64,000 nt of DNA from an uncultured Chloroflexia bacterium (GCA_963752975.1 CAVWAG010000007.1:1793-65792), one strand, 5' to 3'. Shown: positions 25,307-46,544, counted from the stretch's first letter. The notes: generated by a model not told the origin, from the sequence alone. A program made the numbers and translations.

Positions 25307-25311
25307 TTACC

Positions 25312-27234: not shown

Positions 27235-27428
27235 TATAGTTTCCTTAAGACCTCCTCAATGACATGTAACCTTTCCTGAGAAACATATATTTTATAGGGC
27301 GCTGATTCCTTCATTTCCAACTTATCTGTGTCGGGCAGCAGCCGCGTGGGGATACCCTCCCCCTCGAAGAATTCCTTCCACATCTCGGCTATCATAAGGT
27401 TTGGTGCGCTTTTAACTTGAACCCACAT
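27234..27428 (-). CDS. Small soluble protein inside the nuo operon (DUF2007-like)
   Basis: A 64-aa ORF packed between nuoK (which stops 5 nt upstream) and nuoL (its stop overlaps the nuoL start). The pattern V..A.....A......L..EGIP......V.V resembles the DUF2007 family. Confidence 0.5.
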   Translation of the reverse strand: MWVQVKSAPNLMIAEMWKEFFEGEGIPTRLLPDTDKLEMKESAPYKIYVSQERLHVIEEVLRKL

Positions 27429-27432
27429 TGCA

Positions 27433-27747
27433 TTACCACTTCAATATATTGAAATTTTCGATATCGACGCTCTCGCGGTTCCGGTAAGCCGCAAAGATAA
27501 TCGCTATGCCTACAGCTACTTCAGCGGCTGCGACCACCATGACAAAGATGGCAAACAGCTGGCCAGTTAAAATAACAGGAGTGACATATCGCGAAAATGC
27601 TATTAATGTGATATTGACGGCGTTGAGCATTATCTCAACGCACATAATTATCTTGATGACGTTCCGCTGAGTTAGAACGCCGAATAAGCCGATACAGAAA
27701 AGCACCGCTGATAAAACCAGGAATTGATCCAATCCGACGCTTAACAT
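27433..27747 (-). CDS. nuoK: NADH-quinone oxidoreductase subunit K
   Basis: A 104-aa protein with 3 TM helices and typical NuoK size and position. Confidence 0.88.
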   Translation of the reverse strand: MLSVGLDQFLVLSAVLFCIGLFGVLTQRNVIKIIMCVEIMLNAVNITLIAFSRYVTPVILTGQLFAIFVMVVAAAEVAVGIAIIFAAYRNRESVDIENFNILKW

Positions 27748-28232
27748 TATTTCTCCCTGATTACAGCTATCGCACCCAGTATGGCCGAAAGCAGTAGCAC
27801 TGCGGCGATTTCGACAGTCAGTAAATAACCCGGATCCCCAAACAATGCTTTGCCCAAGGGTTTAATCGTTTCGTTCAGAGGGGCGCTATCCGGCGTGGCA
27901 AATGTGACGTTAAGTAAACAAAACAAAATAGTCCCGAGCAGCAGAAAAGATACAGCAGCGGCAATGTATTTCAATTTGCCCAGGGGTTGGCCCTGCCGGG
28001 CATCCCTGGTAAGCATGATAGCTACGATAAGCAAAATGGAGATTGCCCCGACGTAAATCAATATTTGCACTATGGCGAGGAAATCAGCATGCAGCAGCAG
28101 GTAAATACCGGCCACCGTCATAAACAGCAGTATCAGGCACAGCGCTGCTCTAAATATATCACGCACCGCTATGACGGCTATCGCTGATACCACAGCCAGC
28201 GCGGCGAAAAGGTAAAATACTAAATCAAGCAC
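27747..28232 (-). CDS. nuoJ: NADH-quinone oxidoreductase subunit J
   Basis: A 161-aa hydrophobic protein positioned between nuoI and nuoK. Confidence 0.85.
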   Translation of the reverse strand: MLDLVFYLFAALAVVSAIAVIAVRDIFRAALCLILLFMTVAGIYLLLHADFLAIVQILIYVGAISILLIVAIMLTRDARQGQPLGKLKYIAAAVSFLLLGTILFCLLNVTFATPDSAPLNETIKPLGKALFGDPGYLLTVEIAAVLLLSAILGAIAVIREK

Positions 28233-28778
28233 CGGGTCCCCTCTTTCTTTTACTTAACGGGATAAAGCTCAATTTCTGGCCGCCGACCTTTTTGTTATAC
28301 AGCAGAAGGCTTTGCTCCGGCAGTTTATCATCGAACTGCGGCCTGAAATACGCGCTCGGCTGGTGATCGGCCGACACCGCCAGTTTCTCCTTATTCATGA
28401 CCAGGTCACCCCGGCGGTATTTTGCGCATTCATAGCTCAGCCCCATGGCCAATGCATCATAAGGGCACGATTCAACACACAGCCCGCAGAAAATGCAGCG
28501 TCCCGTATCGATTTCAAATTTATCAACGATAAATTTGCTCTCCTCGCCCCTGTGAGTAACGATGATGATATTAGCCTGGGGACAGCTTTTGGCGCAGGTA
28601 GCGCAACCCGTGCATTTATCAGGAAACCACACCAGTTCGTTGCCGCGGATCCGCCTGCAGTGTTCAGTTTCTCGTCGGGATACTGAACTGTAATAGGCGA
28701 CCTGAAGAGGTGCTTAAAGGTAAGCGCCATGCCTTTGGCAATACCTATGCCATACCGTTCAAACTTCAACCCTGCCAC
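28225..28778 (-). pseudogene. nuoI: NADH-quinone oxidoreductase subunit I, frame-disrupted as assembled
   Basis: The N-terminus is MAGLKFERYGIGIAKGMALTFKHLFRSPITVQYPDEK (28437..28778 frame). The remainder is ...RRIRGNELVWFPDKCTGCATCAKSCP...CIFCGLCVESCP (28225..28632 frame, 2x 4Fe-4S). The shift is at the T3 (A3 coding) run at 28668-28670. Confidence 0.85.
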
Positions 28779-29864
28779 CTCCTAATGTGAATAGCCTGGA
28801 CCAGAGCAGGATTAATAAAGCGGCAAATCCAAAATTCAATATGATCATCAACCACTGCATTGTGCCCACCAGTACCTCTATGGCAATAATCAACATGTTG
28901 ATGACGGCCATGGGCAGCAAAAACTTCCAGGCGAACGACATCAATTGGTCGACTCTCAATCGCGGCAGGGTAGCGCGCATCCAGATAATGACACTGAATA
29001 TCATAAATACTTTGATAATGAACCAGATAAGCGGGGGCAGCAACGGACCCTGCCAACCACCCAGGAACAGGGTGGTGATGATACCGGCATAGGCCAGCGC
29101 ATACCGTATTCTCCCAGATAGAACATGGCAAATTTCATGCCGGAGTACTCGATATGGTATCCGGCGACAATCTCCGAATCAGCTTCCAGCAAATCAAAGG
29201 GACGAGCGGTTCATTTCCGCCAGGCAGCCCAGGAAAAATATCATGAATCCCAGAGGCTGCAATAATATAAATGGTATGGTTTGAGATTCAACGATTTTAA
29301 TCATGGAGAAGGAACCCGCTACCAGGGCCACCCCGACCAGTGACAGGACTACGGGCAACTCATAGCTAACCATCTGGGCAATTGCCCGCATACCTGCTAT
29401 CAGCGAATATTTGTTATTGGATGCCCAGGCGGCCATGAAAATGCCGATTACCGAGATGGAGCTGATCGCTATCACGATAAATGATGCCGACGTTTAAATC
29501 AACTAATATGGCGCTTTCGCTGATGGGGATAACTGCAAATATCAAAAGTATGGGCACAAAAACTATTACCGGGGCTATGAAATGTATAAGCTTGTCGGCC
29601 TTTTCAGGCACTATATCCTCTTTCAAAAGGATTTTAATCGCCGTGGCAATGGGCTGAAAGATGCCTTCCGGGCCGCAACGGTTGGGGCCGGTGCTTATCT
29701 GGAAGCGGCCCAGCAACCGCCTTTCCCACCAGATAAAAACTATAACCACGTAAGGATGAAGACAATGATGAGCAGGATACCGACAACTGCGGGCGTCAGA
29801 TAAACTGCCCAGTCCGGCCAGTTTGCGCCTTAAGCAGCAGTTGAAATTGATCAAGCAGGGTCAT
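28759..29864 (-). pseudogene. nuoH: NADH-quinone oxidoreductase subunit H, at least 3 frame disruptions
   Basis: Fragments 29414..29854, 29194..29475, 29001..29192 and 28759..29043 together give WERRLLGRFQISTGPNRCGPEGIFQPIATAIK..., [37 protein letters not shown]... and LPRLRVDQLM. The start is MTLLDQF at 29864. Confidence 0.85.
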
Positions 29865-30969
29865 CCGGTCTATCTCTCCAAGCACAACATCGATGCTGCC
29901 GAAAATAATGATCAGGTCAGCAACCTTCCAGCCGATCACCATATCCTTCAGCGCAGTGATATTGATCAAGGTGGGCGGATAAATATGTACACGGTATGGC
30001 GCTATCGACCCATCACTTACAATGTAGAAACCCATATTTCCCTTGGAGCTTCAATATACCCGTAAGCTTCGCCCTTGGGCGGCCTGAAAAACTGGGGCAT
30101 ATCCGCGCAAACCGGGCCTTTTCAGGTATCTGGGCGATGGCCTGTTCGAGGATGCGTACGCTCTGCCTGATCTCCTGCATGCGTACCCAGTACCTGTCAT
30201 AGCAGTCCCCGCTATCACCGGTGGGCATTTCAAAATCAAATCTGTCATAAATCGAATAGGGGTCCATCTTGCGGATATCCCATTTCACGCCGCTGGCGCG
30301 CAAGACCGGACCGCTTGCCCCGATGTGCGATGGCCGTATCCCTTGGCAGAATGCCTACGCCCTTGCTGCGTGCCAGCAATATCTCATTCTGCGCCAGCAA
30401 CTGGTCATATTCATCAATATATCTGGGCATCTCGGCCACGAATTTTTTCACCGCCGGCATAAAATCTTCCGGCAGATCCTGGCTGACACCGCCGATGCGC
30501 ATATAGTTATACAGCAGGCGCTGACCGCAGACCATCTCGAACATATCCATGATCTTCTCACGTTCCCGCCACATGTAAAGTACCGGGGTCATCATCGCTC
30601 CCAGATCATTCAGGAAGAAACCAACAGCCATCATGTGGCTGGAGATCCGCATTATCTCAGAGAAGATAATGCTGTAGATATTCTGCCCTTTCAGGGACTT
30701 TGATGGCGCCGAGCTTTTCAACGGCCATGCAATAGGCGAGATTATTGGTCATCGATGACAGGTAATCCAGCCGGTCGGTGAACGGGATATTCTGGGTATA
30801 GGTACGCGTCTCGGCCAGTTTTTCAATTCCGCGGTGCAGGTAACCGATGATCGGCTCCAGGCCAACTACGACCTCACCGTCCAATGTCACGCTTAAGCGG
30901 AATACGCCATGTGTTGAAGGGTGCTGAGGGCCGATATTCAAGATAAAATGGCTCGGTCCGGATGGCCAT
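29865..30969 (-). pseudogene. nuoD: NADH-quinone oxidoreductase subunit D, at least 4 frame disruptions; no stop before nuoH
   Basis: Fragments are [24 protein letters not shown]...[13 protein letters not shown] (30657..30969), 30245..30721, 30013..30303, and 29796..30035 (...GFYIVSDGSIAPYRV...GSIDVVLGEIDR). The last fragment reads straight into the nuoH ATG. Confidence 0.85.
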
Positions 30970-31411
30970 TATAAATAATCCCTCCGCAGAGGATGGCCGA
31001 CAAACCCTTCCCAGAGCAGAAGGCGCCGCATATCCGGATGCCCGTCAAATTTAATACCGAACAGGTCAAATATCTCCCGCTCCTGGTAATATGCGGCGCG
31101 CCAGACCGGCATCACGGACGGCACAACCGGATTTTCCCTGTATGAAACAACGCGTTTTCAATATCAAACTCTGGTTATTTTTCAGGGAAACAAGCCTGTA
31201 AACGATCTCCATGTAGTCAAGGAAATCCACGGCAGTTACAAACGTCAGGTAATCAAAATCCAGGCCGGCCGTGTTTTTCAGGTAGCCGGCAACCTGCAGC
31301 AGCTTGTTGCGCGTCAACTAAAATATCAGCTTTACCGGTGGAGATCACCGAGCCGGTAATAGCCTCCTGCAGTTTCTTCCCGGTTTCTTCACAGTTAATT
31401 GCGACGGTCAC
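30969..31411 (-). pseudogene. nuoC: NADH-quinone oxidoreductase subunit C, at least 2 frame disruptions
   Basis: The start is the GTG at 31411. The pieces give ...RNKLLQVAGYLKNTAGLDFDYLTFVTAVDF... and ...[40 protein letters not shown]. The TAATG stop/start overlaps nuoD. Confidence 0.82.
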
Positions 31412-31433
31412 TTGGCTTATTACCTGCTGCTGC

Positions 31434-31922
31434 TTATTTTAAGGCCAGATTCGGATTGTCAATGGTCCCTTTGATCATTTTGGCGTGCAGTTGCGTGATA
31501 CCATAGATAAGGCCCTCCGGTCGCGGAGGGCAACCCGGTATATATACATCTACCGGCAAAATCCGGTTTATACCCGGTACAACACTATATGACTCCCTGA
31601 ATGTACCACCGCTGACGGCGCAGGCCCCCATGGCGATCACCCACTTCGGTTCGGGCATCTGGTCATAAACCATCCTGATAGCCGGCGCCATTTTCCAGGT
31701 TACCGTGCCCGCTACAATCATCAAATCCGCCTGACGCGGGGACCAGCGGAAGATATCCATGCCAAACCTGGAAACATCGAACCGCGAGGCCGCCATGCCG
31801 ATCATTTCAAAAGCGCAACAGGCAAGGCCGAACATCAGCGGAAAAATCGACCTCTGCCTGGCCCAGGCAATAGCCGTATCCACTGTCGTCAATAATAGAT
31901 TGCGTTGCAGCTTCTTCATCAA
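31434..31922 (-). CDS. nuoB: NADH-quinone oxidoreductase subunit B
   Basis: A 162-aa protein with [18 protein letters not shown] and IPGCPPRPE motifs. ORF 31807..32040 (its ATG overlaps the nuoA stop) may be its true N-terminus displaced by another indel near 31925-31935. Confidence 0.88.
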
Positions 31923-32030
31923 GCCATCTATCCGGGTCAGGAAACTGGCTGGTACATTGTCGCATAAAAGAGTTGATGAGTTGGCCTTCTGCCAGGTCAG
32001 CTTCCTGGGGCGTAGATACTTCTGGCCTGT

Positions 32031-32402
32031 TTATTTCCATTGCAGGGCTCCCTTGCGCCAGGCGTAAACATATCCAATTGTCAGTATAACCAGGAATACA
32101 CCCACCGCGACAAGCCCGCCGATACCCAGTTCCTTGATATTAACAGCCCAGGTATAGAGGAAGATGGTCAGCATATCCAGCAAAACGAATAGTACTGCGA
32201 AGAAATAGTATCTAAAATTGAACTGCACCCAGTTTTTCCCGATCGTCTGCATGCCGCATTCATACTGCCCTGATTTAGTCGGGTTCTTCTTGTGCGGAAT
32301 CAGGCCTATCAACTGCAGTAGCTTCGGTAAAAGCGGGATGGTGATGGTAAAACCTATAGCTATTATGAGAAGTATTCCAACATAACCGTATTGTTCAAGC
32401 AA
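32031..32402 (-). CDS. nuoA: NADH-quinone oxidoreductase subunit A
   Basis: A 123-aa protein with 3 TM helices and a YECGM motif. It is the first gene of the operon. Confidence 0.88.
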   Translation of the reverse strand: MLEQYGYVGILLIIAIGFTITIPLLPKLLQLIGLIPHKKNPTKSGQYECGMQTIGKNWVQFNFRYYFFAVLFVLLDMLTIFLYTWAVNIKELGIGGLVAVGVFLVILTIGYVYAWRKGALQWK

Positions 32403-32564
32403 TTTGTGATATCTCCTCGGTTAAAAGCCGTTGGATAGTATATTACAATACTCAAAAAGATGTCAAAACGAATTCAGCGAGTTTGACTTACGAACAATGC
32501 AGGGTATTATAATTAGTGCTCGGATTATTATTCCATTTAATATTACTCTTGAACATCAGCCAAA

Positions 32565-33117
32565 ATGCGTATTACCGGTGGCTCCGCCAAAGGACAGATT
32601 ATTAAATCCCCTCAAAGCGTTGCTGTCCGTCCTACTACGGATAAAGTTCGCGAGGCAGTCTTCTCAATACTGGGCGCATTAGCCAATAATTGGGATAGCG
32701 GGCCTTGATCTATTTGCCGGCAGTGGCGCGCTGGGGATCGAGGCCTTGAGCCGTGAGGTTGGATGGGTCGATTTTGTTGACCAGAGCAGTAAATGCTGCC
32801 TGGTAATCAAGCAGAATTTAATCAAAACAGGATTTATTGATAAAGCTCATGTATACTGTTGCCCGGTTATGAAAGCAATCAGTTTCCTGGAGCGCAGCTA
32901 CGACATGGTATTTGTTGACCCGCCGTATGCCGATAATTCCCTCAGCACCCTGATACCTGTTTTAGCCAGGTCGACTTTTATTTCCCGGGACTCGGTCATT
33001 TTAGTATCGCATGCCTCACGCAATATTCTCGACCAGCAGTACGGTAGCCTGTCAAAGATTAAAGAGAAGCGATATGGCGATACCTGCATTTCAATATACC
33101 AGAAAGGAGGTTGCATC
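32565..33117 (+). pseudogene. rsmD: 16S rRNA (guanine966-N2)-methyltransferase RsmD, frameshifted; reads in frame into coaD
   Basis: MRITGGSAKGQIIKSPQSVAVRPTTDKVREAVFSILG... is followed, after a shift near 32700, by LDLFAGSGALGIEALSRE...VFVDPPY. There is no stop before the coaD TTG. Confidence 0.8.
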
Positions 33118-33598
33118 TTGACCACTGCTATTTATCCCGGCAGTTTCGACCCCATTACCAACGGGCACCTCGACATTATAAAGAGGGCGTCATCCATATT
33201 TGAGAAGGTGATTCTCGGTATTTATGATATACCGCAGAAATCGCTGCTTTTTTCAGTTAAGGAAAGAGTGGACCTGGCCCGCCAGGCGGTAACAGATTAC
33301 AAGAACGTCGAGGTGATTGTCATACTCAGGGATTACAGTGGAGTTTGCCCGGAAAGCTAAAGCCCAGGTGCTGGTACGCGGTTTGCGCGCCAGTTCAGAT
33401 TTCGAACGTGAATTCGAGATGGCGCTAATGAATAAAAAACTTGCTCCGGACATAGAGTTAGTATGCTTCATGGCAAATCTGAGATATCAGTTCTTGAGTT
33501 CAAGCCTGTTGAAAGAGATAATCCAACTCGGCGGCAATCTCGATGACATGGTGCCTCAAGGGGTCAGCGCCGCCTTGAAGAAGAAACTCCTGTCGTAA
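33118..33598 (+). pseudogene. coaD: Phosphopantetheine adenylyltransferase, frameshifted
   Basis: A TTG start lies 7 nt after AAAGGAGG. The product begins TTAIYPGSFDPITNGHLDIIKRAS and, after a shift near 33320, continues YSGITVEFARKAKAQVLVRGLRASSDFEREFEMALMNKKL. Confidence 0.85.
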
Positions 33599-33678
33599 GA
33601 CATAAAAACAGGATATAATCTCTATAGCCTGTTTTGCCTGACTGTTTATATAAATAAATACTTGGAGGTTTAAGGAAA

Positions 33679-33942
33679 ATGGCCTATATCATAACCGACG
33701 ATTGCATTAGCTGCGGCGCCTGTGAAGCGGAGTGCAAGAACGAAGCTATTAAAGAGGGAGAATCAATTTATCAAATAGATGCGGCCAAGTGTACCGAATG
33801 TATAGGCTGGTTCGATAAGCCGAAATGCGCCGAAGTATGCCCGGTGGACTGCTGCGTCGCTGACCCGAATCATAAGGAAAGCAAGGATCAACTTCTGGAC
33901 AAATGGAAGAAATTACACCCGGGTAAAACGCCGAAAGCTTAG
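33679..33942 (+). CDS. 4Fe-4S ferredoxin (YfhL-like)
   Basis: An 87-aa protein with [11 protein letters not shown] and CTEC...CAEVCP cluster motifs. Confidence 0.85.
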
Positions 33943-33969
33943 CTCAGGCTTCCTTCATTTAAATTTCAT

Positions 33970-34686
33970 ATGTTGACTATTGACCTTGATCTGTTAAAGA
34001 TCAACGGGTGTGAGTTTATTCTGGATGCCGGATGCGGGGCCGGCCGGCATATCTGGCAGGTATGCAAGGTGAACAAGGGGGCATCGGTTGCCTTTGACCT
34101 CGATGTGGCAAGCCTTCAGAACGCCAGGTGTATGCTGTACCAGATGGATTTAAAAGGGGAATCTGCAGGCCCATGGCACTTGGTATCAGGCAGTATAACC
34201 AGGCTGCCGTTCGACGACGCTTTTTTTCATAAAGTAATCTGTTCGGAGGTATTGGAGCACATACCGGACGATTTTCAAGCGGTGTCTGAATTAACACGTG
34301 TGCTCAAACCCGGTGGTATCCTGGCAGTCAGTGTGCCTTCCCATTTTGCGGAGTCGGTATGCTGGAAGATATCCGACGATTATCACAATACCCCGGGTGG
34401 ACATATCAGGATATACAAACAGCAGGATATTCTGGAATTGCTGAGGAAATTTAACCTGGATGTATTTGCCATACGCTATAAACACGCATTGCATTCCATG
34501 TATTGGTGGTCCAAAGGACTTTTCGGACTGAAGAACGAAAAGGCCTTGATACCTTCTCTATATAATAAATTCCTGGTCTGGGATATTTACACGCATCATA
34601 AATATACCGGATGGTTTGAGAACGGGCTCAACCGAGTAGTTCCCAAGAGCACAGCCATTTACTGCCGCAAGCCGGCGGCAAATTGA
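33970..34686 (+). CDS. Class I SAM-dependent methyltransferase
   Basis: A 238-aa protein with ILDAGCGAGRH (motif I) and LKPGGILAVSV. The substrate is unknown. Confidence 0.8.
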   Translation: MLTIDLDLLKINGCEFILDAGCGAGRHIWQVCKVNKGASVAFDLDVASLQNARCMLYQMDLKGESAGPWHLVSGSITRLPFDDAFFHKVICSEVLEHIPDDFQAVSELTRVLKPGGILAVSVPSHFAESVCWKISDDYHNTPGGHIRIYKQQDILELLRKFNLDVFAIRYKHALHSMYWWSKGLFGLKNEKALIPSLYNKFLVWDIYTHHKYTGWFENGLNRVVPKSTAIYCRKPAAN

Positions 34687-34710
34687 TGCGAACCGATAAG
34701 GCACACACCG

Positions 34711-35509
34711 CTATTTACTATCCAGGGCCTTAGCTTTTTGATAAGCAGCGGACACCGCGTTGATTATCAGTGATCTGAATCCCCCCATTTCGAGGCTGAG
34801 CAGCGCCTCAGCCGTAGTGCCTCCCGGTGAAGTAACCATGTTCTTTAATTCTGCCGGGTGCAAGGCCATTTTTTTCATAGCTTCAGCGGATCCCACGATT
34901 GTTTCGATTACAAGCTTGCTGGCAACACTCCTCGGCAATCCGATATGGACACCCGCATCAATCAGAGATTCAATAAAAAGGAAAACATAGGCAGGCCCGC
35001 TGCCGCTCACCGCGGTAGCCATGTCGATATATTTTTCATCCTCAAAATATTGCTCGGCGCCCATCGCAGCCAGGATAGAACGGACCATCTCATGCTGCGG
35101 CCCGGATAATTCCCCGGTAGACGTCCAGGCCGTCATACCTTTGCCCACCTGTGCCGGTGTATTCGGCATAGCCCTGGCCACCAGCCTGTAATCCAGATGA
35201 CGGCAAAGCGACTCGAGGCTTATCCCGGCCGCTATCGATATCACCAATTGCGATTTCAATTGCCCCGCTATTTGCTTCATAATGGGAACGAGTTCATGCG
35301 GTTTCACGGCAAGGACAACTGCATCCGCGCCGATTACAGACCCGGCAATTATCAGCGGTTACCGGTATCCCATATTTTTTAACAGGTAATCGCGGCTTTG
35401 CGCCGATAATCGCTGACAACAATATCCTGCTTGCCGGCCAGCTTCTTCCTGAGAATGCTTTTACCACCGCTCTGCCCATGGTTCCGCCGCCGACTATCGC
35501 AACTTTCAT
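34711..35509 (-). pseudogene. proC: Pyrroline-5-carboxylate reductase, frame-disrupted
   Basis: The N-terminus is MKVAIVGGGTMGRAVV (35294..35509). The C-terminal 198 aa (34711..35307) carry AMPNTPAQVGKGMTA and VTSPGGTTAEAL. At least two shifts lie between 35300 and 35440. Confidence 0.85.
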
Positions 35510-35512
35510 AAT

Positions 35513-36189
35513 TCAACTCCTTTCGCCGAAAATAGCCCGGCCTATCCGCACCATGGTTGCACCTTCCTCGATGGCGACCTCGAAATCGTCGCTCATGCCC
35601 ATGGAAAGTTCCCTTAAATCATAGGATTCGATTGAGTTTTCTTAACCCTGCAAATAGCGGCCTCAGTATCCTGCTGCGTCATCAACCTGAGGCGCAATAG
35701 TCATCAAGCCCAGGGGATCCAAATTTGGCAACCTGCAATTGAGCTGATCGCGCTGTCCAATTCATCTTCGCCAAAGCCGAATTTGGTGCCTTCACCTGCA
35801 AGATTAACCTGTATAAATACAGGCACCTTCTTAACAGCCCTCTCATTTATCAAACACGCCAGGCGCAAGTATCAACGCTATGTATGATGTCCACGATCTC
35901 AATTGCGTCCCCGACCTTGTTGGACTGCAAATGCCCGATAAAATGGAGTGTGAAAGTGGAACGGCAATCTGCCAGTTGCTCCAGCTTGGCAGTTGCCTCC
36001 TGGATCCTGTTTTCACCGAAATCGGTCAATCCGCAACTTATCGCGTCTACGTATTGCCTGCTGAGAGAAGTTCTTGGTGACAGCTATAATTCTTACGGCA
36101 GACGGATCCCGGCCACTTCTCCGGCATGCCCCGGCGATGCGGCCGCGCAATTCCGCGATATTCTCATGAATACTATACCTTGAATCCAT
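35513..36189 (-). pseudogene. yggS: YggS-family pyridoxal-phosphate homeostasis protein, several frame disruptions
   Basis: MDSRYSIHENIAELRGRIAGACRRSGRDPSAVRIIAVTKNF...FGENRIQEA...HFIGHLQSNK...[27 protein letters not shown] is readable only by hopping frames. Confidence 0.8.
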
Positions 36190-36264
36190 AGCCGCCAACT
36201 GACCGCTAAAGGGAACCGGCTTCACTCATATATTTTCTCATCAGCGGCCTGGGCTTCCGGTGCA

Positions 36265-37453
36265 TCATCCTCCACATTGCGCACTTTTCCCGGCGGCGGA
36301 AAGCGTTTCCCGGTAGTATTCATGCTGAATAATGAGATTCATAATTTCACTCGTGCCCGTCCAGATAATCGAAAGCCTGGCGTCCCTGAGCATTTTCTCA
36401 ATGGGATATACATTTGTATATCCTATACCGCCCACTACCTGCATGGCATTATTAATGATCTCCCAGGCCGCCTCCGTGGCAAATTTCTTGGCTTCAGATA
36501 CCAGCCTCCTCGAGTAACCCGTGCTTCCCATAGCGTCTACAGCGGTAGCAGCACCGTATACCAGGGTGCTGGCGGCATCAAGCTTGGTTACACTGTCGGC
36601 TATCCTGAAACTGACGCCCTCGAACTCACGTATCTTGCGGCCGAAAGCTTTCCTTTTGTCACTGTATTTTGTGGCAACTTCAAGAGCCGCCCTGGCCAGT
36701 CCCACCACACCCGCAGCGGAGGTCATCCTCTCAGGGATCATCATCTGATTGAATACATCCGCGCCCCTGTTCAAACCCAAAACCAGGTTCTCCTTGGGTA
36801 CCCTGGTATTCTTAAATACCAGCCTGCCTGCGCCGCCACCCCTGGTGCCCAGCAATCCGTAAATATATTTAGCTTCAACGCCCATGTCCCTCTCAACAAT
36901 GAAGGCGCTTATCGATTTCCCCGGCGTGCCTTCAGTACGTGCATAGACCAGGAAAATATCCGCCCCGTCCGCGCCAACCACAAATCTTTTTTGCCCGTTC
37001 AGTATAAAATGGTCACCTTCCTGTACCGCGGTCGTGGTTGCGCCAAAGAAATCGGAACCTCCCCGCGGTTCGGTTAAAGCTTCGGCACAGAAAATCTTTC
37101 CCTTTTAGCAGGGGCTCCAGGTACTTTTTTTTCTGCTGGTCCGATCCAAATACATCGAGCGCTTCACCAACTATACTGACCAGTGAAAACAGGCAGCCCA
37201 GCGACATCCCCAGGACACCTATCTCTTCCAGCGCAATTATTTCATCAACCCACTTCAAACCCCTTCCGCCGTATGCCGGGTTAAATCTCAGTCCCAGCAG
37301 TTTACTGGTGGCAAGGCTGACCACGTATTCACGCGGGTACCTCACCTTATCAGCATCCATATCTAAGAGAAGTTGCTTGGGCACAGACTTAACGAATTTT
37401 CGTACCTCTTCCCTTAGTGCCCTCTGCCTGTCTGTTAATAATGATTCCAGCAT
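36265..37453 (-). pseudogene. Acyl-CoA dehydrogenase, frame-disrupted
   Basis: ORFs 37013..37453 and 36265..36981 are the N and C parts. The bridging segment [37 protein letters not shown] is readable in a third frame. Confidence 0.82.
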
Positions 37454-37506
37454 GTTTTCACCTCACAAATCCGATATATTTCCGCAAAAGTTCAGATCCG
37501 GATACC

Positions 37507-39959
37507 TTATTTTAATACTATATTTAAGAGCTTGCCGGGCACATAGATAATCTTAGCAATACTTTTACCTGCGACGTAGCCTTTTATGCGTTCCTGTTCA
37601 AAGGCCAGCTTCCTGGCGTCTTCCTCCGTGATATTGACCGGTACGGAGAGCTTATCCCTGAGCTTACCATTGACCTGTATAACCAGGGTGGTTTCTTCAT
37701 CGGCAGCAAGTTCCCGTGTCCCATTTCGGCCAGGACTGATTGTGAATACTATACTTGTAGCCGAGTTGCTGCCATAGCTCTTCAGTCATATGCGGCGCGG
37801 AAGGGGCCAGCAGCAGCAGCAGTGTCCTGGCCGCTTCATCCCACACCGAGCTCCGTACAGACCCGTTCTCCTGTACCCTGCTCAACACATTGCTGTATTC
37901 CATCAAAGCCGCCAGCATAGTATTGAAACGGAAACGTTCCATATCCTCTGTGGCTTTCTTAATCGTTTTGTGCATGATCCTCAGCCATTCTTTCTGCGCA
38001 TCCGCGTCAAGCTGCTTCTCCTGATATTGGACTGATAGCAGGTTCCATACCCTTTTCAACCACCGGCCCATACCGATGATACCGTTATCATTCCACTCGC
38101 CACCCTGCTCCCACGGACCAACAAACATCAGATAAACGCGGACGGCATCGGCGCCGATGTCAGAAACATACTCATCAGGGTTAACCACATTGCCTTTTGA
38201 CTTACTCATCTTTTCACCCTGGCACACAATGATGCCCTGGTTAAACAGGCGCGTAAACGGTTCATCAAATTTTACGATCCCGATATCCCTGATAGCCTTA
38301 ATAAAGAAGCGGGAATAAAGAAGGTGCATCGTGGCATGTTCGGCGCCGCCCGTATAAAGATCTACGGGCATCCAATAATCGAGTTGGTCCCGGTTAAACG
38401 GGTATTTATCAGAAGTCGGACTGGTATACCTCAGGAAATACCAGGAGGAGCACATAAACGTGTCCATGGTATCGGTTTCCCGTTTTGCAGCAGCGCCGCA
38501 TTTCGGGCACCTGGTATTTACAAAGGATTCACAATATTTAAGCGGAGATTCTCCGGTTGGTTTGAATTCAGCATCAGGGGGCAAAAGTACAGGCAGTTCA
38601 TTCTCCGGTACGGGGATAATGCCGCATTTCGCGCAATATACCATGGGAATTGGTGCGCCCCAATACCTCTGACGGGAGATCAGCCAGTCCCGCAACCTGT
38701 ACGTAATAGTCTTGCCCCCCCAACCTTTCTCGGAGAGGAAATCACAGATGGCCGATATCATTTCCCCGTCGGATAAACCGTTAAACTGGGCCGAATTAAC
38801 CATGTGCCCGCCTTCCACGTGGGCCGCTTCCAGGTCCTTCCCGTCCCAGTTATCCGGCGCGACCACTAACCTGATAGGTATGCCATATTTTTTAGCAAAA
38901 TCGAAATCCCTCTGATCGTGAGCGGGGACCCCCATCACAGCGCCCGTCCCGTATTGAGGCAGGACATAATCCGCGATCCAAACAGGTACTTTTTCGCCGT
39001 TTACACGGTTGACAACATAGCTTCCCAGGAATACACCGGTCTTTTCAGTGTCAGCGGCTGTCCTTTCGAATTCTGTCTGCCTCTGTGCGCTGCGGATATA
39101 AGCTTCCACCTCAGCTTTCCTGCCGGGAACGGTCAATCCGGGGACCAGCGGATGCTCCGGCGCAAGTACAAAGAAAGTTACGCCGAATAAAGTATCCGGC
39201 CGCGTTGTGAAAACCCTGATTTCCTTCTCTTCGATACCCGGTTCATCCAGGCCGAAAGAGATATCTGCGCCATAGCTTTTGCCTATCCAGTTGGTCTGCA
39301 TGATCCGGATACGTTCCGGCCAATCGATCTTACTGAAATCAAGCAACTCATCAGCATACTTGGTGATTTTGAAAAACCACTGTTCAAGCCGCTTTTTCTC
39401 CACGGCGGTGTCACAGCGCCAGCAGATACCGTCGCCTACTACCTGCTCATTGGCCAGCACCGTCTGACATTTCGGACACCAGTTGACGGCGGCTTTCCCG
39501 CGATATGCCAGTCCGGCTTCATACAGTTTTAAGAAAAACCACTGTGTCCATTTATAATATTCGGGAAGACAGGTGATGACCTCCCTGTCCCAGTCATATA
39601 TAGCGCCTATGGTTCGCAACTGCCGGCGCATATTTTCGACATTTTGCAATGTCCAGACCGCTGGATTAATGCCGGTGGATATCGCCTTGTTTTCAGCGGG
39701 AAGTCCGAACGCATCGAAGCCCATGGGATGAAGCACATTATAACCCCGCATCATTTTATAGCGGGCATATACATCGGAAGGCGCCATGGCGTACCAGTGC
39801 CCGATATGCAGGTCGCCCGATGTATAAGGAAACATGGTCAAGGCATAAAATTTAGGCCTCGGATCATCTTCTTTAACCTCTGTACAAATGGTCCGCCGCC
39901 CACCTTTCCTGCCATTTCTTCTCGATTTCTTGTGGGTTGTAGTTAATTGCAGCTTTCAT
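37507..39959 (-). pseudogene. leuS: Leucine--tRNA ligase, two 1-nt frame disruptions at the ends
   Basis: The core 714-aa ORF (37697..39841) has HIGH (DLHIGH) and KMSKS. The true N-terminus MKAAINYNPQEIEKKWQERW starts at 39959 and is shifted at CC 39877-39878. The C-terminal tail LAADEETTLVIQVNGKLRDK...IIYVPGKLLNIVLK* is shifted at CCC 37713-37715. Confidence 0.9.
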
Positions 39960-40076
39960 AGTAGTCAGAATTTTAGCCTTTGAGGCTCAAGCGTCAACAT
40001 ATTGATGATTAATCAAGCTGACGTCATATGCCGGTAAACCGGAAATCTGATATCATAAATTCATATAGGATTTAAT

Positions 40077-40454
40077 ATGCTGCCGGAGAAATTTGAGAGG
40101 CTCGTAATTGATACCGTTGCCGGGATGCCCGCTGAATTTAAAGAGATGCTGGATAACGTAGATATATGTATACAGGACTGGCCAAGCGGGAACAATTGAA
40201 AAGCGTGGGGTTGACGAGATAAAGAGGATCTACTCGGTTTATACGAAGGGACCCCGAGCACGCAGCGGGATCAAAATTATAACCTGGTACTGCCCGACAA
40301 GATCACGATATTTCAAAAACCCCTCGAAGCTCAATGCCCATCCGCCAAGGAATTGAGGGAGGAGATAGTGAGAACTGTGAAACATGAAATAGCGCATTAC
40401 TTTGGGCTTGACGATGAGCGTTTGCATGAGATTGAAAACAGGGCCGGCCGTTAA
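40077..40454 (+). pseudogene. Zincin-like metallopeptidase family protein (DUF1025-type), frameshifted
   Basis: MLPEKFERLVIDTVAGMPAEFKEMLDNVDICIQDWPS... continues in other frames as ...LLGLYEGTPSTQRD...LPDKITIFQKPLE...VKHEIAHYFGLDDERLHEIE (HExxH). The ORF-track minus-strand entries here are shadows. Confidence 0.7.
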
Positions 40455-40534
40455 TCACTATTGATTTACACTTAATTTTAGAGTAGAGTATTACCAGGGC
40501 TATATGGGGTAAATACTTTGGAGGCTTAATATAA

Positions 40535-42355
40535 ATGAGAAGGTTGCCATTATCGTTGCCGATTGCCTTGTTGATATTGGTGCTACTTGTCCGTTGCCGC
40601 TTGCTGTTGCAGCCGACGGCACAACCGGGCTGCCTGACGGCCTGACTCTTACTAAAGGGTCCCTTTCATTCAACCAATTGAAGCAATAAAGGACGACCGT
40701 CACCATAAAAGTCACTGCAACAAACAACAGCGCGGTTCAAATCGAATACTCGCTGCCAATCAAGATAAATGGGACTGCTTATGGATCGCCCCAAGCGATT
40801 TCCCTTGCGCCCTCCGCCACCAAGGATATTACATTTACCGTTACGGCACAAAACGCGGGCAATAACGATGTAGCGGTGGGAAACCTGCAGGGTTTTTTCA
40901 CAGTAAAGGGAGGTTCATTTTTTGACATGTTTCCTCTCTATGTCTGGATAATATTCGGCGTAATACTGCTAATTCGTCGTTACTGTTACTTGTCCTGATG
41001 CTGATAAAACCAAAGAATAAAGCCGGCGCCCAGCCGAAGCAGTTCTCGCATCAGGGTAAGCAAAAGGGTAAAGCGGGGAAACCCGGTGCTCCTGACTCAT
41101 TCCAGCAACCGGGTGGATCCCTCAGGCCAGGGATGCCTGACGGGATGGCGCCCGGTATGCAGGGCCAGGGCCAGTTTGGTGCACCCACGATATGCAGGCG
41201 CCGGGTATGGCGGGCATGCAGCAGCCATTCCAGCAACAGCCACAGCCGGGTATGCAGCCTTTCCCCCAGCAAAACGCGCCGGGCATGGCTCAGCATTTCC
41301 TATCACAACCCGGTATGCCTCCATCATTCCAGCAACAGCCACGCGGTATGCCGCCGCATTCCAGCAGCCGCCGCAGCCGGGTATGTCAACAATTTCCGCC
41401 CCCGCCGGGCACACCACCTTGCCACCAGCAATCCCAGCAGGGGGGCGCGCAACCTTTACCCAACCCAACCTCAGCAGGGCATGCCGCCTTCCGCTATGAG
41501 AGGGCCGCAATATCCGCAAGCCCCCCATATGCCGCAACCGGGCCAGCAACCTCCGCAGCAACCGCCGATGCATGGCATGCAACCCAATAGTACAGCAACC
41601 GCCGGGCACACGGCATGCCTCCTCCTCCACCTAATGCATTCGGGGCGCAACCCGCGATGCCATTCTGGAATGCAGCCGCCGGCGCCGCAAATGCCCGGGC
41701 AAATGTATCCACCCGTGCACATGCCGGTTCAGCCGCCCTCACAGGGCGGAATGCCACCGCCGATGCCCGTCAATTACCAGTCGATGGGTATGCCGAAGTT
41801 TTCAGTCAGCAACCTGACCATAACGCCTAACACCGTTAAAGTCGGCGAACCGGTTAATATCAGCATCATGTCTCCAATAACGGCATGCAAACCGGTAAAT
41901 ATAGCGTTGTTTTGAGAATGGGCGGCGTGGTGGAAAACATCAGCGATATGACCTTATCGCCCGGCCAGAACCAGACAGCCAGCTTTGTGGTAGTCAAAGA
42001 TGCACCCGGCGATTATTATGCCGATATAGATGGACTTGGTGGGTTCTTCACAGTAATCCCCCTCAATCCGCCGTCATTCATTGTGAGCAATTTTGCGATT
42101 TCTCCAGAGCGCGTCAGGCAGGGACAGCCCGTCATCGTAACAGCCACTGTGACCAATACCGGAGAGATCACCGGCAGCCACCCCCTGATCCTGAGAGTGA
42201 AGGGAATGGCCGAGGCCCAGCAAGAAGTCCTGCTCGGACCGGGCAAAATGCAGAAGGTCGAATTCCAGATGAGCAAAGATACCCCCGGGTTCTACCCTGT
42301 ATCAATGGAGAACTGGACGGGCAAATTCGTCGTTGAAATGGATTGGACCGGGTAG
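40535..42355 (+). pseudogene. Membrane protein with CARDB-like beta-sandwich domains and a Pro/Gln/Met-rich low-complexity linker; many frame disruptions
   Basis: It starts after a GGAGG RBS with MRRLPLSLPIALLILVLL. One Ig-like domain follows (VTIKVTATNNSAVQIEYSLPIKING...FTVKGG), then a TM segment and basic KPKNK, then about 700 nt of PGMQ/QQP repeats readable in three frames. The C-terminus has two CARDB-like domains (FSVSNLTITPNTVKVGEPVNISI..., FIVSNFAISPERVRQGQPVIVTATVTNTGE...). The single-gene model is inferred. Confidence 0.55.
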
Positions 42356-42410
42356 CAGCTAGGGGCGCGGATAGGTCTAGTCTGGTTCGGCTCGGTTTTC
42401 ACCAGTTTGG

Positions 42411-42869
42411 TCATATGTCTGTGAGATAATCGATATAAAATATGCCGTTGAGGTGATCGATTTCGTGCTGCATGGCTTGCGCAAGCAGATCTGATAGCCT
42501 TTCTGCGTACGAGTTTGCCGTGTCTGTCTCTTGGCTCTGCACTCTCACTGATTCGAGCGTTGGTTATCTCGGCCTGGTATCCCGGCACACTCAGGCATCC
42601 TTCCATAACCAGCCTCTCGCCTTTTGCCTCTCACTACGACTTCCGGATTTATCAGGACAAAAACCTCCTCGTTCAGGCATCTGGATGACCATGACTCGCA
42701 GCGGGACACCGACCTGGTTGGCTGCCAGGCCCACGCCGGAAGCCTCTGCATGCGTTTCGATCATATTGTCGATCAAGCCGCCGGACAGAAACATCAGAAT
42801 GATGGAGACTTTGTTGGCTTTTTTCCTCAGCATTGGGTCGGGGTTTTTTCTTATCTTTAGAACTGCCAT
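42411..42869 (-). pseudogene. def: Peptide deformylase, about 3 frame disruptions
   Basis: MAVLKIRKNPDPMLRKKANKV..., GVGLAANQVGVPLRVMVIQ, EGCLSVPGY and QHEIDHLNGI(F/L)YIDY (the three Def motifs) are found in different frames. The gene starts 10 nt after the priA stop. Confidence 0.85.
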
Positions 42870-42878
42870 GACAAATAA

Positions 42879-45110
42879 TTAAATCATACCCACAGGGTCA
42901 ACGTCCAAAATCCACCCCTCTGGGTAAATTCATACCATTCAAAATAGCCTGCAAGTCTGTTGCCCAGCAATTATAATCTGCATCTGGTACTTGCCCCGCA
43001 ACCGTGATAAATGAGCGGGCGCCGGACCTATCAATCGTGATCCCGGTAAACCCTGTACTGCGATTTGCTGTTTCAGGGTGTTTGCCATCGTTCTCGCTTG
43101 CCTGTTGCAACTTTCCTGGCTTCGATTGCTGACTGTCAGCCGGACTATATTGTTGTAGGGCGGATACCCGAAAGCACGCCCTGTATTTTATTTCCTGTTT
43201 ATAAAACCCAGGGTAATCATGCCTTGCAGCGCATTTGATCGCATAGTATCCCGGGTTGAAAGTTTGAATGACCGCGCGTCCCGGTACATGTGCCCGCCCC
43301 GCCCGGCCGGCGACCTGGCAGAGAAGCTGGAAGGTCCTTTCTCGCGGACCTGAAATCAGGCAAATTCAGTCCGGTATCGGCATTGATCACACCTACTAAC
43401 GAAACTCCCGGAAAATCCAGCCCTTTGGCCAACATCTGCGTGCCGATCATTATATCTGCTTCGCGTTTGCGGAACATGTCAATCAACTTTGAATATGCCT
43501 TCGAAGTTGCCGCGGCATCACTGTCAAAGCGCAGGATTCTGGCCTATTCGAAAAGCCTCCTGCATTCAGCCTCGACTGTTTGTGTGCCTATGCCCAGATA
43601 CTTGATATCAACGCTTGCGCAGGCCGGGCATTTTGCAGCGGCGGCGTAAGTCCGCCGGCAGTGGTGGCAGACCAGGCGTTTGCTGGCCGCATGATATGTC
43701 AATGTCCCCGAGCATTTTCTGCAGCTAAATACCCAACCGCAATTGCCGCATTCAATAAATGTGGCAAGCCCGCGCCGGTTGATATACAGCATTACCTGCT
43801 CGTCCCTGCCAAGGGAAAGCACAACCTGTTTTTTAAGCAGGCGGCTGAAGATGCTGCGGTTTCCCGCTTTGAATTCGTCGCCCATATTAACCACGCTAAC
43901 TTCGGGCAGCGGCAGGTTGCCCAGGGCAGAAACCCGTTCGTTCAACTCGATCAGCCGGTACTGTCCCTGCAGTGCCCGGTAATAAGTCACAACATCAGGC
44001 GTAGCGGTCCCCAATACCAAAACAGCACCGGTTAAGTGCTGCCAGCCTGATAGCCACATCGCGCGCATGGTACCTGGGCATTTTGTCCGACTGTTTATAG
44101 GCCCACTCATGCTCCTCGTCGACTATTATCAACCCGAGATCAGGTTGCGGCGCAAAGATGGCGCTGCGCGGCCCTATGACGATGTCGAATTCGCCCCTGC
44201 TGATGCGCCGCCACTCGTCGTATTGTTCACCGGCAGATAACTTGCTGTGTATGACCGCCACCCTGCCGGGGAACCTTGCAAAGAAGCGGTCTGTTATCTG
44301 CTGTGTCAGAGCAATCTCAGGGACCAGGCATATGCCCCGTTTTCCCTGCCTGATCGTCTCCGCCAGTGCGGCCAAGTATATTTCAGTCTTACCGCTGCCG
44401 GTTACACCGTTAATCAAGAATGCGCCGGGCCCGTGGTAATCCGGCCCTCCTTTAATTGCTGTCTCTACCGGTTGCCAGGCATCCTTTTGCCCTGCAGTGA
44501 ATTGCAGGGGAAACTCAAGCGCAAAATCTCTCTGCGCCAGTGGATCGCGAAATACCTCTTCATCCTCCAGAACAATCAGCTTTTTAAGCAGCAGGGCTTT
44601 GATAACGCTGCCTCCGCATTTGACCCGCGATAGTACCTGGCCAACCGGCAACCTGCCCCCCGTGGCCTCAAGAAGTTTCAGCACCTCCGCTTGCTTGGCC
44701 CCACCGGCCGTGCCCGCTTTTCCCCGGCCATCGGCCTGACCCGCAGCAGTATTCAGTGCCACATATCTGATATATTTAGCCTTTTGGGGTTTTCCGGTCC
44801 CCGAACCCGGCGGCAACATCAGGTCTATAGCATCGAAAATGGGGGAAAGGTAATAATCAGCAATCCACAGGGCCAGGTCAATATGCTCAGGGCTTATGAT
44901 AACCGGTGGGGAGATGAGTTCTATAATGTCCCGCGTATCCTGGACAGCAGTGGAATCCGACAGGCTGAGCACAATGCCGCGGACCACCCTGGCGCCGAAG
45001 GGCACCAGCACCCCCTGCCCTCTCAGGATGCTTAACGATCCCGGTACTGAATAGGTAAAAGCATGCCGGTGGCCGCCAGGTGCATCGACGGCCACCTCAG
45101 CAAATTTCAT
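42879..45110 (-). pseudogene. priA: Primosomal replication-restart helicase PriA, at least 6 frame disruptions
   Basis: 43995..45110 carries GVTGSGKTEIYL and IIVDEEHEWAYKQ. 43544..44110 carries the Cys-rich Zn region (CGNCGW...CRKC...CHHC...CPAC). 43217..43486 carries MIGTQMLAKGLDFPGVSLVGV. The terminal GWILDVDPVGMI* ends at 42879. Confidence 0.88.
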
Positions 45111-45115
45111 GCAGT

Positions 45116-45538
45116 TTATTCAGATTCAGTTACGGTGGCCTCCGGCTGGCCGGCTGGCGCCTCAACAAGCATATCCGGTACCACCACCTGGGCAATATTC
45201 TCCCGTCTTTCCTTTAGCCTGGCTTCCTTGGTGCTGAGACGCCTGATATAGTACAGCTTGCTGCGCCTGACCTTACCATGGCGCACGACTTCAATTTTCT
45301 CCAGCAACGGTGATGCCAGCGGGAACGTATGCTCCACACCTACACCCGAAGTCACACGCCTGACGGTGAAATTCCCTCCTGAATTATGCTTGGCAACCTT
45401 GATAATCAAGCCCGGGAATACCTGCAGGCGCTCACGGTTAGCCTCCTTAATCTTGAAGCTGACACGCACGTTGTCACCGGGCGCCAGTTTAGGCAGGCCC
45501 GCTGTCACTTTGTTCTTTCCTATAGCCTTGATATCCAT
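45116..45538 (-). CDS. rplS: 50S ribosomal protein L19 (with a C-terminal extension of about 25 aa)
   Basis: A 140-aa protein with FKIKEANRERLQVFPGLIIKV...FTVRRV.SGVGVEHTFPL.SP. It is downstream of trmD as usual. Confidence 0.9.
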   Translation of the reverse strand: MDIKAIGKNKVTAGLPKLAPGDNVRVSFKIKEANRERLQVFPGLIIKVAKHNSGGNFTVRRVTSGVGVEHTFPLASPLLEKIEVVRHGKVRRSKLYYIRRLSTKEARLKERRENIAQVVVPDMLVEAPAGQPEATVTESE

Positions 45539-45567
45539 TTCATATCCTTATCCTTTATTTATTATTA

Positions 45568-46311
45568 TCAATTATTATTTAAATCTTGCGATTTCAACAA
45601 CTTTTTCTCAGCATCAGTCAGCGCTGCTTTGCACAACAGGTCCGGCCGCCTGGCGGCCGTCCTCAGAATACTCTGCCGGCGCCGCCAATCAGCAACAGCC
45701 TTATGATCCCCGGATAAAAGCACATCCGGCACGTTGCTTCCCCGGTATTCGGGAGGCCGTGTATACTGGGGATATTCCAGCAGGTTGCCAACATGCGACT
45801 CCTCGGTCAGGGATGTATCGGAACCTATCGCGCCGGGCAACAACCTTACCAGGCAATCGATAATCACCATGGCTGCTGATTCGCCTCCGCTGAGCAGGTA
45901 ATCGCCTACACTAATCTCATCGCAAGCAAGTTGCTCCGCAACCCGCTCATCGATACCCTCATAGTGGCCGCAAATCAATATTATATTATTATTGCCGGCT
46001 AATTTTCCAGCCAACTCCTGGGTAAGCAATCCGCCCTGGGGTGTCAACAGTATCAGGTGAAAGTCTGCTGCTGCATTCTCTGCCTTTATTGATTCCACTG
46101 CCTCGAATATAGGCTCAGGCTTCATGACCATACCGGCGCCGCCCCCATACGGGTAATCATCCACGGTATGGTGCTTATCGTGTGCAAATGACCTGATGTT
46201 ATGCAGGCTGACTTTAACTATTCCCTGGGCTATTGCCCTGCCGATAATACTGTGCTCCAGAAAACCCGGGAAAGCCTCCGGAAATAATGTCAGCACATCG
46301 ATATTTAACAT
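45568..46311 (-). CDS. trmD: tRNA (guanine37-N1)-methyltransferase
   Basis: MLNIDVLTLFPEAFPGFLEHSIIGRA...VDDYPYGGGAGMVMKPEP...LICGHYEGIDERV. I prefer the ATG at 46311 over the ORF-track start at 46377. Confidence 0.9.
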   Translation of the reverse strand: MLNIDVLTLFPEAFPGFLEHSIIGRAIAQGIVKVSLHNIRSFAHDKHHTVDDYPYGGGAGMVMKPEPIFEAVESIKAENAAADFHLILLTPQGGLLTQELAGKLAGNNNIILICGHYEGIDERVAEQLACDEISVGDYLLSGGESAAMVIIDCLVRLLPGAIGSDTSLTEESHVGNLLEYPQYTRPPEYRGSNVPDVLLSGDHKAVADWRRRQSILRTAARRPDLLCKAALTDAEKKLLKSQDLNNN

Positions 46312-46544
46312 TTCCTGATCATCCTGCAAAGCGGCAAACAAGGTAGGTATTTTACCACACCACTCGTAAAGTACCAAGTTATCCGCCTGCCCAGGTCTTG
46401 TGCGAACAGTAGAACACTTGAACTATGTACCTATATATTGTGATGATCAGCCGTTTTTATTCTACAAATTGTGGTTGCTGGCAAAATAAATTTAGCGGAA
46501 AGCCGAATCTTGCCGAAATGCCGCAGCTTTTTCTCCGAAAACGC

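Follow-up and report, generated by a model that had tools for sequence, protein, structure and literature searches.

Frame disruptions in housekeeping genes of an uncultured Chloroflexota contig are almost certainly sequence errors, not gene decay

Introduction

Frameshifting insertions and deletions (indels) are a well documented kind of error in long-read assemblies and in metagenome-assembled genomes (MAGs), and finding or repairing them is the purpose of IDEEL, proovframe, Kastor and frame-shift-aware DIAMOND/MEGAN-LR (PMC9262707; 10.1101/2021.08.23.457338; PMC12007338). The raw-read error quoted for PacBio is about 8% insertions, 3% deletions and 2% substitutions, and that for nanopore falls into roughly equal classes (10.1101/2021.08.23.457338). 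We are concerned here with a stretch of 64,000 nucleotides (nt) from an uncultured Chloroflexia bacterium (GCA_963752975.1 CAVWAG010000007.1:1793-65792; called the window below, always at its full length), in which 23 genes – nuoB, nuoC, nuoD, nuoH, nuoI, proC, yggS, the acyl-CoA dehydrogenase gene (ACAD), leuS, def, priA, ftsZ, nrdR, mraZ and rsmH among them – are broken by shifts of the reading frame. These disruptions are almost certainly base-calling or consensus errors in the assembled contig rather than mutations in a living genome, because the assemblies of close relatives are without the indels and the broken genes are still under selection. The window sequence is otherwise a faithful copy of functional genes.

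In genuine reductive decay, as in Mycobacterium leprae or recent endosymbionts, selection is relaxed, nonsense mutations appear, deletions are favoured over insertions and larger deletions also occur; the core genes of replication, translation and division are spared, and the damage is common to the lineage. The window resembles it in that many genes have disrupted frames but displays none of its other hallmarks. Rescue by transcriptional slippage, which is known from endosymbionts, takes place at long poly(A) and needs long homopolymer tracts that are conserved in the lineage. Here too there are genomic frameshifts in needed genes, yet the bases inserted in the window mostly differ from those beside them, and sister strains do not have the sites. 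As in long-read or hybrid assemblies with residual errors, single-base indels split conserved genes that align full length to their orthologues once repaired, essential genes are hit indiscriminately, and accurate independent assemblies do not have the indels. Unlike what is seen in such assemblies, however, the window's indels are mostly not changes of homopolymer length, they are biased towards insertion and they are patchy, at 0.2 to 11 per kb.

Broken genes and their intact counterparts

Since exact-protein look-ups were the only route to close relatives, the comparison rests on the independent assemblies found in this way, which are 93-100% identical to the window at the DNA level. They include GCA_026389675.1 (L161, window span 39975-51810), SRR20698638 (L162, 48467-51354), SRR31558115 (L163, 17443-32479), a group covering the nuo region (L164-L171: two NCBI MAGs, several Logan runs and one JGI metagenome) and three contigs from ERR10755942 (L172, 33095-36022; L176, 14963-16636; L177, 44662-48180). 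A more distant 25.6-kb Logan contig (L175, 27.5-49.9 kb) has the same gene order with all genes intact. Gene calls on a 28.6-kb ENA/NCBI contig (ERZ1426817), whose LeuS (P0001) is 98% identical, reveal the same intact gene set. Look-ups with nuoB, nuoM, nuoJ, the protein encoded at 54306-55469 and the pilT-like one at 60715-61779 found no match, which leaves 1-14.9 kb and 51.8-64 kb of the window without a close DNA reference. When LeuS was used to scan GTDB genomes and JGI metagenomes, the best matches had 71-76% protein identity, to proteins of Dehalococcoidia MAGs, which is enough for protein-guided frames and not for DNA comparison. The contig comes from a Dehalococcoidia-like member of the Chloroflexota. 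A literature search on the accessions of the relatives returned no match.

In up to eight independent assemblies, at 86-100% DNA identity to the window, its broken genes are whole. Among L161, L163, L165-L170, L172 and L173, nuoA-K, proC, def, priA, mraZ, rsmH, ftsZ and nrdR are all intact, and in every close relative but L164 the calls are full length for NuoB (201 amino acids, aa), NuoC (146), NuoD (368), NuoH (368), NuoI (181), ProC (266), Def (159), PriA (706-741), MraZ (142), RsmH (311), FtsZ (371) and NrdR (176). At the coding indel sites between 28.6 and 33.4 kb, all of the five to eight relatives that cover a site (three of three at 32700) agree against the window. Across the 5 kb of nuoA-K, DNA divergence among the relatives is 4-14%, with only 0-2 small gap events (1-4 nt), L164 with its own 34-nt deletion being the exception, whereas the window shows about 18-21 gap events against any of them. 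The same holds within what is essentially the same strain, that of sample ERR10755942: L176 has no mismatch to the window over 1,674 nt, the sole difference being an extra T at 14974 in the window; L172 has none over 33428-35235 and lacks all eleven of the window's indels between 33105 and 35868; and L177, 99.5% identical to the window, is without its mraZ insertion.

Two relatives have peculiarities of their own. In L164, a sister MAG (GCA_026389715.1), deletions of 34-80 nt lie opposite window positions 25537-25618, 28498-28531 and 33848-33903, fragmenting nuoL and nuoI and removing part of the ferredoxin gene, and a 1-nt deletion at window 28033 breaks nuoJ; assembly defects are thus not confined to the window's record. 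In L177, at about 46666 in window coordinates, a T-run is 2 nt shorter within a 121-aa hypothetical gene, which is called at 108 aa, and since the window, L161 and L175 agree at this site the difference lies on the L177 side.

To locate the shifts, intact orthologues were aligned to the window with a frameshift-aware protein-to-DNA aligner (validated on a toy case), run first with orthologues from moderately related loci and then with 26 L175 proteins. Scoring the codon usage of open stretches had given a signal too weak to place shifts without homologues and was replaced by this homology-guided alignment. With shifts allowed, the repaired genes align from their first to their last residue at 74-98% identity, def excepted (residues 1-147 of 159, one gap), and they do so free of gaps apart from def and the CARDB gene, a length-variable repeat protein with 59 gap positions. 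The shifts number one in nuoI, five in nuoH, five in nuoD, two in nuoC and one in nuoB; one each in rsmD and coaD, four in proC, five in yggS, two in ACAD and two in leuS; two in the zincin gene, ten in the CARDB gene, seven in def and five in priA; and one each in mraZ, rsmH, ftsZ, nrdR and the Nudix gene. The ftsZ shift was seen by the aligner (with the first set of orthologues) and by DNA comparison, those in nrdR and the Nudix gene by DNA comparison only. By the same aligner, 13 control genes (nuoA, J, K, L, M and N, the Fer4 gene, the methyltransferase gene, rplS, trmD, two hypotheticals and ftsA) have no shift, which bears out the initial annotation where it described nuoL/M/N and ftsA as intact. 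Its estimate of about 23 broken genes, with clustered disruptions, is likewise upheld by alignment, DNA comparison and the order of Pfam domains, although its list lacked nuoB and a membrane-protein gene at 14558-15260.

Substitutions reveal that these genes have remained under constraint. Mismatches to L161 at codon positions 1/2/3 number 22/14/94 in priA, 16/14/67 in the CARDB gene and 5/1/25 in the intact trmD, and the substitutions unique to the window are distributed 9/2/43 in nuoD, compared with 6/0/30 in the intact nuoL. At sites invariant among the relatives, window-unique amino-acid changes affect 1.6% of codons in the broken nuo genes and 1.9% in the intact ones (Fisher p = 0.62), and no excess of substitution errors was found in the dense nuo genes, where it was looked for. 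A gene with five frameshifts that had drifted as a pseudogene does would not keep such a pattern, which disfavours decay.

Signature and distribution of the indels

The DNA-level catalogue was drawn from pairwise alignments over 17.4-51.8 kb, to which five shifts seen only at the protein level, at 36-40 kb, were added. Not counting lengths divisible by three, it holds 81 indels, and the part between 28,225 and 45,110 contains 72 frame-changing events, with insertions (48) and deletions (24) both represented, as the initial annotation had noted. Nearly all are 1-2 nt long and there are no large deletions; this insertion-rich spectrum looks like that typical of read error and the reverse of bacterial gene decay. 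Across all repaired genes, the only in-frame stop is an AAG to TAG change in priA.

What did not survive scrutiny is the proposal that most indels sit in short homopolymers. As many as 36 of 45 single-base insertions (80%) differ from both neighbours, compared with 57% expected for random insertion (p = 0.0014), just four lie in runs of three, and all four kinds of base are inserted. Some insertions interrupt a homopolymer: ACGAAAATG in the relatives corresponds to ACGATAAATG in the window, and TTCAAATAAAA to TTCAAGATAAAA (in these examples, A or T runs are broken). The change of homopolymer length expected of nanopore-type residual errors is therefore not what is seen here. Three sites that had been pinned also moved by 3-13 nt: the extra base in ftsZ is at 50038 and not in the GGG at 50041-50043, the supposed missing A of nuoI at 28668-28670 is a complex net -1 change at about 28651-28657, and nrdR has an extra A at 51225 in place of a change at C51238.

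The events are far from evenly spread. Counts per kb depart strongly from a Poisson distribution (index of dispersion 4.9, chi-square p = 1e-18), with rates per kb of 0.18 at 17.4-28.6 kb, 5.3 at 28.6-32.0, 0.9 at 32.0-35.3, 11 at 35.3-36.3, 0.8 at 36.3-39.95, 9 at 39.95-44.04 and 0.9 at 44.04-51.8, so that the error rate varies about 50-fold across stretches of 1-4 kb. The three dense regions announced by the initial annotation are thereby recovered, at 28.6-32.0, 35.3-36.3 and 39.95-44.04 kb, with 5-11 indels per kb. In the last of these, coding DNA has 8.8 indels per kb and intergenic DNA a similar 13.8 per kb (from a small intergenic sample); the indels are not filtered by selection, since they are about as dense in genes as outside them and ftsZ, priA, leuS, def and complex I are all hit. 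The ratio of insertions to deletions shifts along the contig, from 31:22 before 42.36 kb to 22:4 after it (Fisher p = 0.02), which hints at different reads or polishing states under different parts.

Dense patches, isolated breaks and clean stretches

The 64 kb carry a housekeeping gene set. A complex I operon of 11 subunits (nuoA-B-C-D-H-I-J-K-L-M-N), on the minus strand, is followed in order by rsmD, coaD, the ferredoxin gene, the methyltransferase gene, proC, yggS, ACAD, leuS and a zincin-like gene, and then by the CARDB-repeat gene, def, priA, rplS, trmD, mraZ, rsmH, ftsA, ftsZ, nrdR and nrdJ. In the list of open reading frames (ORFs), short overlapping ORFs stand at nuoC-I, proC-ACAD and zincin-priA, and nuoL, nuoM and nuoN are unbroken.

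The first patch (28601-32000, minus strand) takes in nuoI, nuoH, nuoD, nuoC and the 5' part of nuoB; 10 insertions and 8 deletions of 1 nt in it are specific to the window, 18 indels in all, a number for which the earlier figure of at least 10 was conservative. They are at 28657, 29101, 29204, 29478, 29749, 29827, 29865, 30045, 30117, 30325, 30673, 30942, 31142, 31309, 31423 (intergenic), 31915, 31960 and 31967, each backed by all of the five to eight covering relatives (L163-L170) with the exception of 31423, where gap placement differs among relatives. Aligned to the L175 orthologues, the frames in this patch are restored end to end at 86-95% identity. The second patch (35301-36300, minus strand), which spans the 5' part of proC, all of yggS and the 3' end of ACAD, has 11 indels (35340, 35380, 35409, 35460, 35631, 35668, 35675, 35738, 35869, 36047 and 36293), placed by DNA comparison with L172 and L173 and by alignment of L175 proteins.

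The third patch (39951-44040, genes on both strands) consists of the leuS-zincin spacer, the zincin gene (40077-40454, plus strand), the CARDB gene (40535-42355, plus), def (42377-42869, minus) and the 3' half of priA (42879-44040, minus), where the AAG to TAG substitution occupies 43544-43546. Global alignment with L161, blastn events and alignment of L175 proteins together give about 37 frame-changing indels (26 insertions, 11 deletions) at the DNA level and 24 at the protein level, for a region of 40-45 kb in which about 20 had been counted by the initial annotation.

Between and beyond the patches, breaks are isolated. ACAD (36225-37453, minus) has two +1 shifts, near 37104 and 36293, and aligns to its L175 orthologue over 409 of 409 residues at 92.4% identity once both are allowed, and leuS (37510-39968, minus) needs exactly two +1 shifts, near 39877 and 37716, to align over 819 of 819 residues, at 97.6% identity to P0001 and 88.2% to the L175 LeuS. 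In the rsmD-coaD pair (32565-33592, plus), rsmD has extra bases at about 32700 and 33103 (the latter near its 3' end) and coaD one at about 33315, contradicted by three of three, six of six and five of five relatives, respectively. The stretch from 44041 to 51810 (plus) contains single-base insertions in mraZ (47299-47301), rsmH (48262), ftsZ (50038) and nrdR (51225), next to intact rplS, trmD, two hypotheticals and ftsA; all four are seen against L161, which for rsmH is the only DNA-level comparison, those in ftsZ and nrdR also against L162 and that in mraZ also against L177. The cleanest block (17443-28600, minus), with leuC, leuD, leuB, the Nudix gene, GNAT, nadK, nuoN, nuoM, nuoL, a 64-aa ORF, nuoK and nuoJ, has two window-specific indels in 11.2 kb, at 20683 (Nudix) and 23799 (intergenic).

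Three further genes are split. The gene for a membrane-anchored hypothetical protein (14558-15260, plus) is broken by the extra T at 14974, removal of which yields a single ORF of 233 codons. An IolD-like thiamine-pyrophosphate enzyme (1078-2962, minus) lies in two frames that overlap at 1853-1938, with Pfam TPP_enzyme_N and TPP_enzyme_M in the ORF 1853-2962 and TPP_enzyme_C in the ORF 1078-1938, in the other frame. A GAF-HPRT fusion (54306-55728, plus) is split inside its phosphoribosyltransferase domain: GAF and Pribosyltran profile positions 10-57 are in the ORF 54306-55469, Pribosyltran positions 82-156 in the ORF 55393-55728, and the frames overlap at 55393-55469. Nearly all the isolated breaks that had been listed (ftsZ, nrdR, mraZ, rsmH, two in leuS, rsmD, coaD, Nudix, IolD-like and GAF-HPRT) are accordingly real features of the sequence, the exception being one in a GIY-YIG gene, no copy of which was found in the window by motif and Pfam searches.

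Repeats, mobile elements and allelic variation

Several other features of the region vary between strains or are repeated. The CARDB protein is 463 aa long in L161, 593 aa in ERZ1426817 and 635 aa in L175, and at about 41344 the window is without a 39-nt Pro/Gln-rich repeat unit present in L161, apparently a genuine in-frame variation in repeats and distinct from the errors. The neighbouring def (42377-42869) differs from that of L161 by about 20% of its DNA (codon positions 34/16/50), compared with 4-7% for its neighbours, and may be a divergent, possibly recombined allele besides being the most error-dense gene. The 64-aa ORF between nuoK and nuoL (27234-27428, minus), which is called also in L164, L166, L168 and L171, is conserved and has no Pfam match on record.

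Mobile elements are seen at two places. In several sister strains, the rsmD-nuoA spacer (window 32403-32564) harbours an insertion sequence (IS) of the rve/DDE_Tnp_IS240 family (L163 211-1263, L164 2531-4212, L165 2423-3624, L167 1-1259) that is absent from the window, L166 and L175, and is an insertion polymorphism within the species group. At 8607-9701 and 10173-11267, the window itself has 1,095-nt inverted-repeat arms, 100% complementary and 471 nt apart, in an island of low GC content (41-45%, compared with about 52%); each arm encodes an identical 288-aa fragment of a Mutator/IS256-family transposase (Pfam Transposase_mut positions 197-322 of 379). The structure may be a composite element or a pair of IS copies in inverted orientation; a fold-back artefact of the assembly is a further possibility. 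Short GC-rich palindromic units (CGCAATGACG...CGTCATTGCG and GCGGCCGC-containing) near the IS copies, at 8474-8520, 9714-9756 and 10090-10158, look like repetitive extragenic palindromic (REP)-type intergenic repeats, and, from a reading of ORF translations only, similar units seem to recur at about 55,960-56,120, within 55.7-56.2 kb, a part that appears non-coding.

Origin of the errors and of their patchiness

The initial annotation preferred consensus or polishing error to gene decay, and the evidence agrees: the relatives are intact, the window is the sole outlier and purifying selection is undiminished. A very recent mass pseudogenisation in a dying, relic or host-dependent lineage could claim that the indels are physically present in the deposited sequence, that priA has a nonsense substitution and that the patches are somewhat more divergent than their surroundings. 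It would, however, have to reconcile five to ten frameshifts per gene with no rise in non-synonymous change and an unaltered dominance of third positions, when at usual bacterial ratios of substitutions to indels 18 neutral indels in 3.4 kb should bring well over 100 unconstrained substitutions. Gene decay in bacteria has a known deletional bias, the opposite of insertions at 2 to 1 over deletions with no large deletions; a free-living cell could not do without ftsZ, leuS, priA, def and complex I together; and contigs of essentially the same strain are without the indels. With no relaxed selection, no disruption shared within the lineage, no deletion bias and a single in-frame stop, real pseudogenisation is hardly credible. 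That the genes work despite their shifts, through programmed ribosomal frameshifting, transcriptional slippage or insertion/deletion RNA editing, has in its favour only that the encoded proteins would be essential, and we consider it practically negligible. Recoding sites are conserved between relatives, yet here relatives at 94-100% identity have uninterrupted frames; there is no slippery or long homopolymer context, four-fifths of the inserted bases being unlike their neighbours; intergenic DNA is equally hit and one gene has up to 10 shifts. The absence of the sites from sister strains and of slippery context excludes recoding or editing.

The patches need an explanation of their own. The consensus carries random single-base insertions and deletions, insertions being about twice as common, and the patches most likely mark places where effective read support was very low when it was built or polished. 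Such support could drop through fluctuating depth in low-coverage, indel-prone data of the long-read type, or where the assembled strain has a divergent allele, in which case few reads from a mixed population would match and raw indel errors would survive; plain depth fluctuation on the scale of reads (1-4 kb) would give the same picture. A long-read origin of the contig is plausible because it is longer than 64 kb and two identical 1.1-kb inverted repeats are kept apart in it, the contigs of the relatives being 1-29 kb. Low coverage or collapsed strains had been suggested as the setting, and strain variation is moderately supported. Divergence from the relatives is modestly higher in 500-nt bins that are dense in indels (Spearman rho 0.37, p = 0.004), which fits low effective coverage as well as collapsed strains, and the second patch starts near 35,236, the point at which identity to the ERR10755942 strain ends. 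Over 35236-36022, L172 has 31 mismatches and nine indels relative to the window (about 4% different), and since 17 of 25 mismatches in yggS are at third positions they are real allelic differences. Likewise, nuoD has 49 window-unique substitutions per kb, mostly synonymous, compared with 10-20 per kb in neighbouring genes, its unique synonymous changes being 2-4 times theirs.

These observations raise the question of whether low depth as such is not the main source of the artefact and two co-existing strains, with alleles about 4-20% apart, were instead merged into a chimeric or collapsed consensus. We regard this as a variant of consensus error rather than a true rival, and a possible one, towards which we lean less than towards low read support. 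The switch from 100% identity to about 4% mismatch near 35,236, the raised unique substitutions in nuoD and the overall correlation speak for it. Merging of both alleles would, however, put indels beside mismatches, and in the L172 comparison indels are no closer to single-nucleotide polymorphisms between strains than expected (nearest at 2-14 nt or more, at a mismatch density of 4%); moreover, nuoB and nuoC have five indels with low unique divergence, and the divergent GNAT gene has none. It is very unlikely that the dense patches are real strain-specific recombination tracts or hypervariable alleles (nuoD-nuoH, yggS, CARDB-def) of a co-existing Dehalococcoidia population, whose fine-scale mosaicism the errors would read out or, more remotely, that the cells underwent localised bursts of indel mutagenesis.

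Some findings sit uneasily with consensus error as outlined here. One disruption, the priA nonsense codon, is a substitution, so the error process is not purely one of indels. At 40-44 kb the DNA comparison rests on one close relative, L161, together with the more distant L175 proteins, and some of the roughly 14 DNA events in def may be alignment noise in a gene that is 20% divergent (the protein alignment gives seven). Divergence and indel density are only moderately linked, GNAT (21.0-21.5 kb) being 14% divergent with no indel. Finally, errors that are not bound to homopolymers are unlike the residual errors usual in polished nanopore assemblies (PMC9262707).

Conclusions

The consequences are practical. 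Until this contig, and probably the whole MAG, has been re-polished or frame-corrected, its gene calls, pseudogene counts, completeness estimates, pangenome analyses and ratios of non-synonymous to synonymous substitution (dN/dS) will be wrong, and at least 23 genes in 64 kb, including those for complex I, leuS, priA, def and ftsZ, would be mis-annotated as fragments or pseudogenes. Two lessons reach beyond it, namely that (i) third-position bias and assemblies of sibling strains can together tell artefact from decay without reads, and (ii) residual errors need not be homopolymer-bound and can cluster where a strain has divergent alleles. As for the organism itself, the pattern is real and highly non-random, but it is an artefact of sequence quality that implies no new biology.

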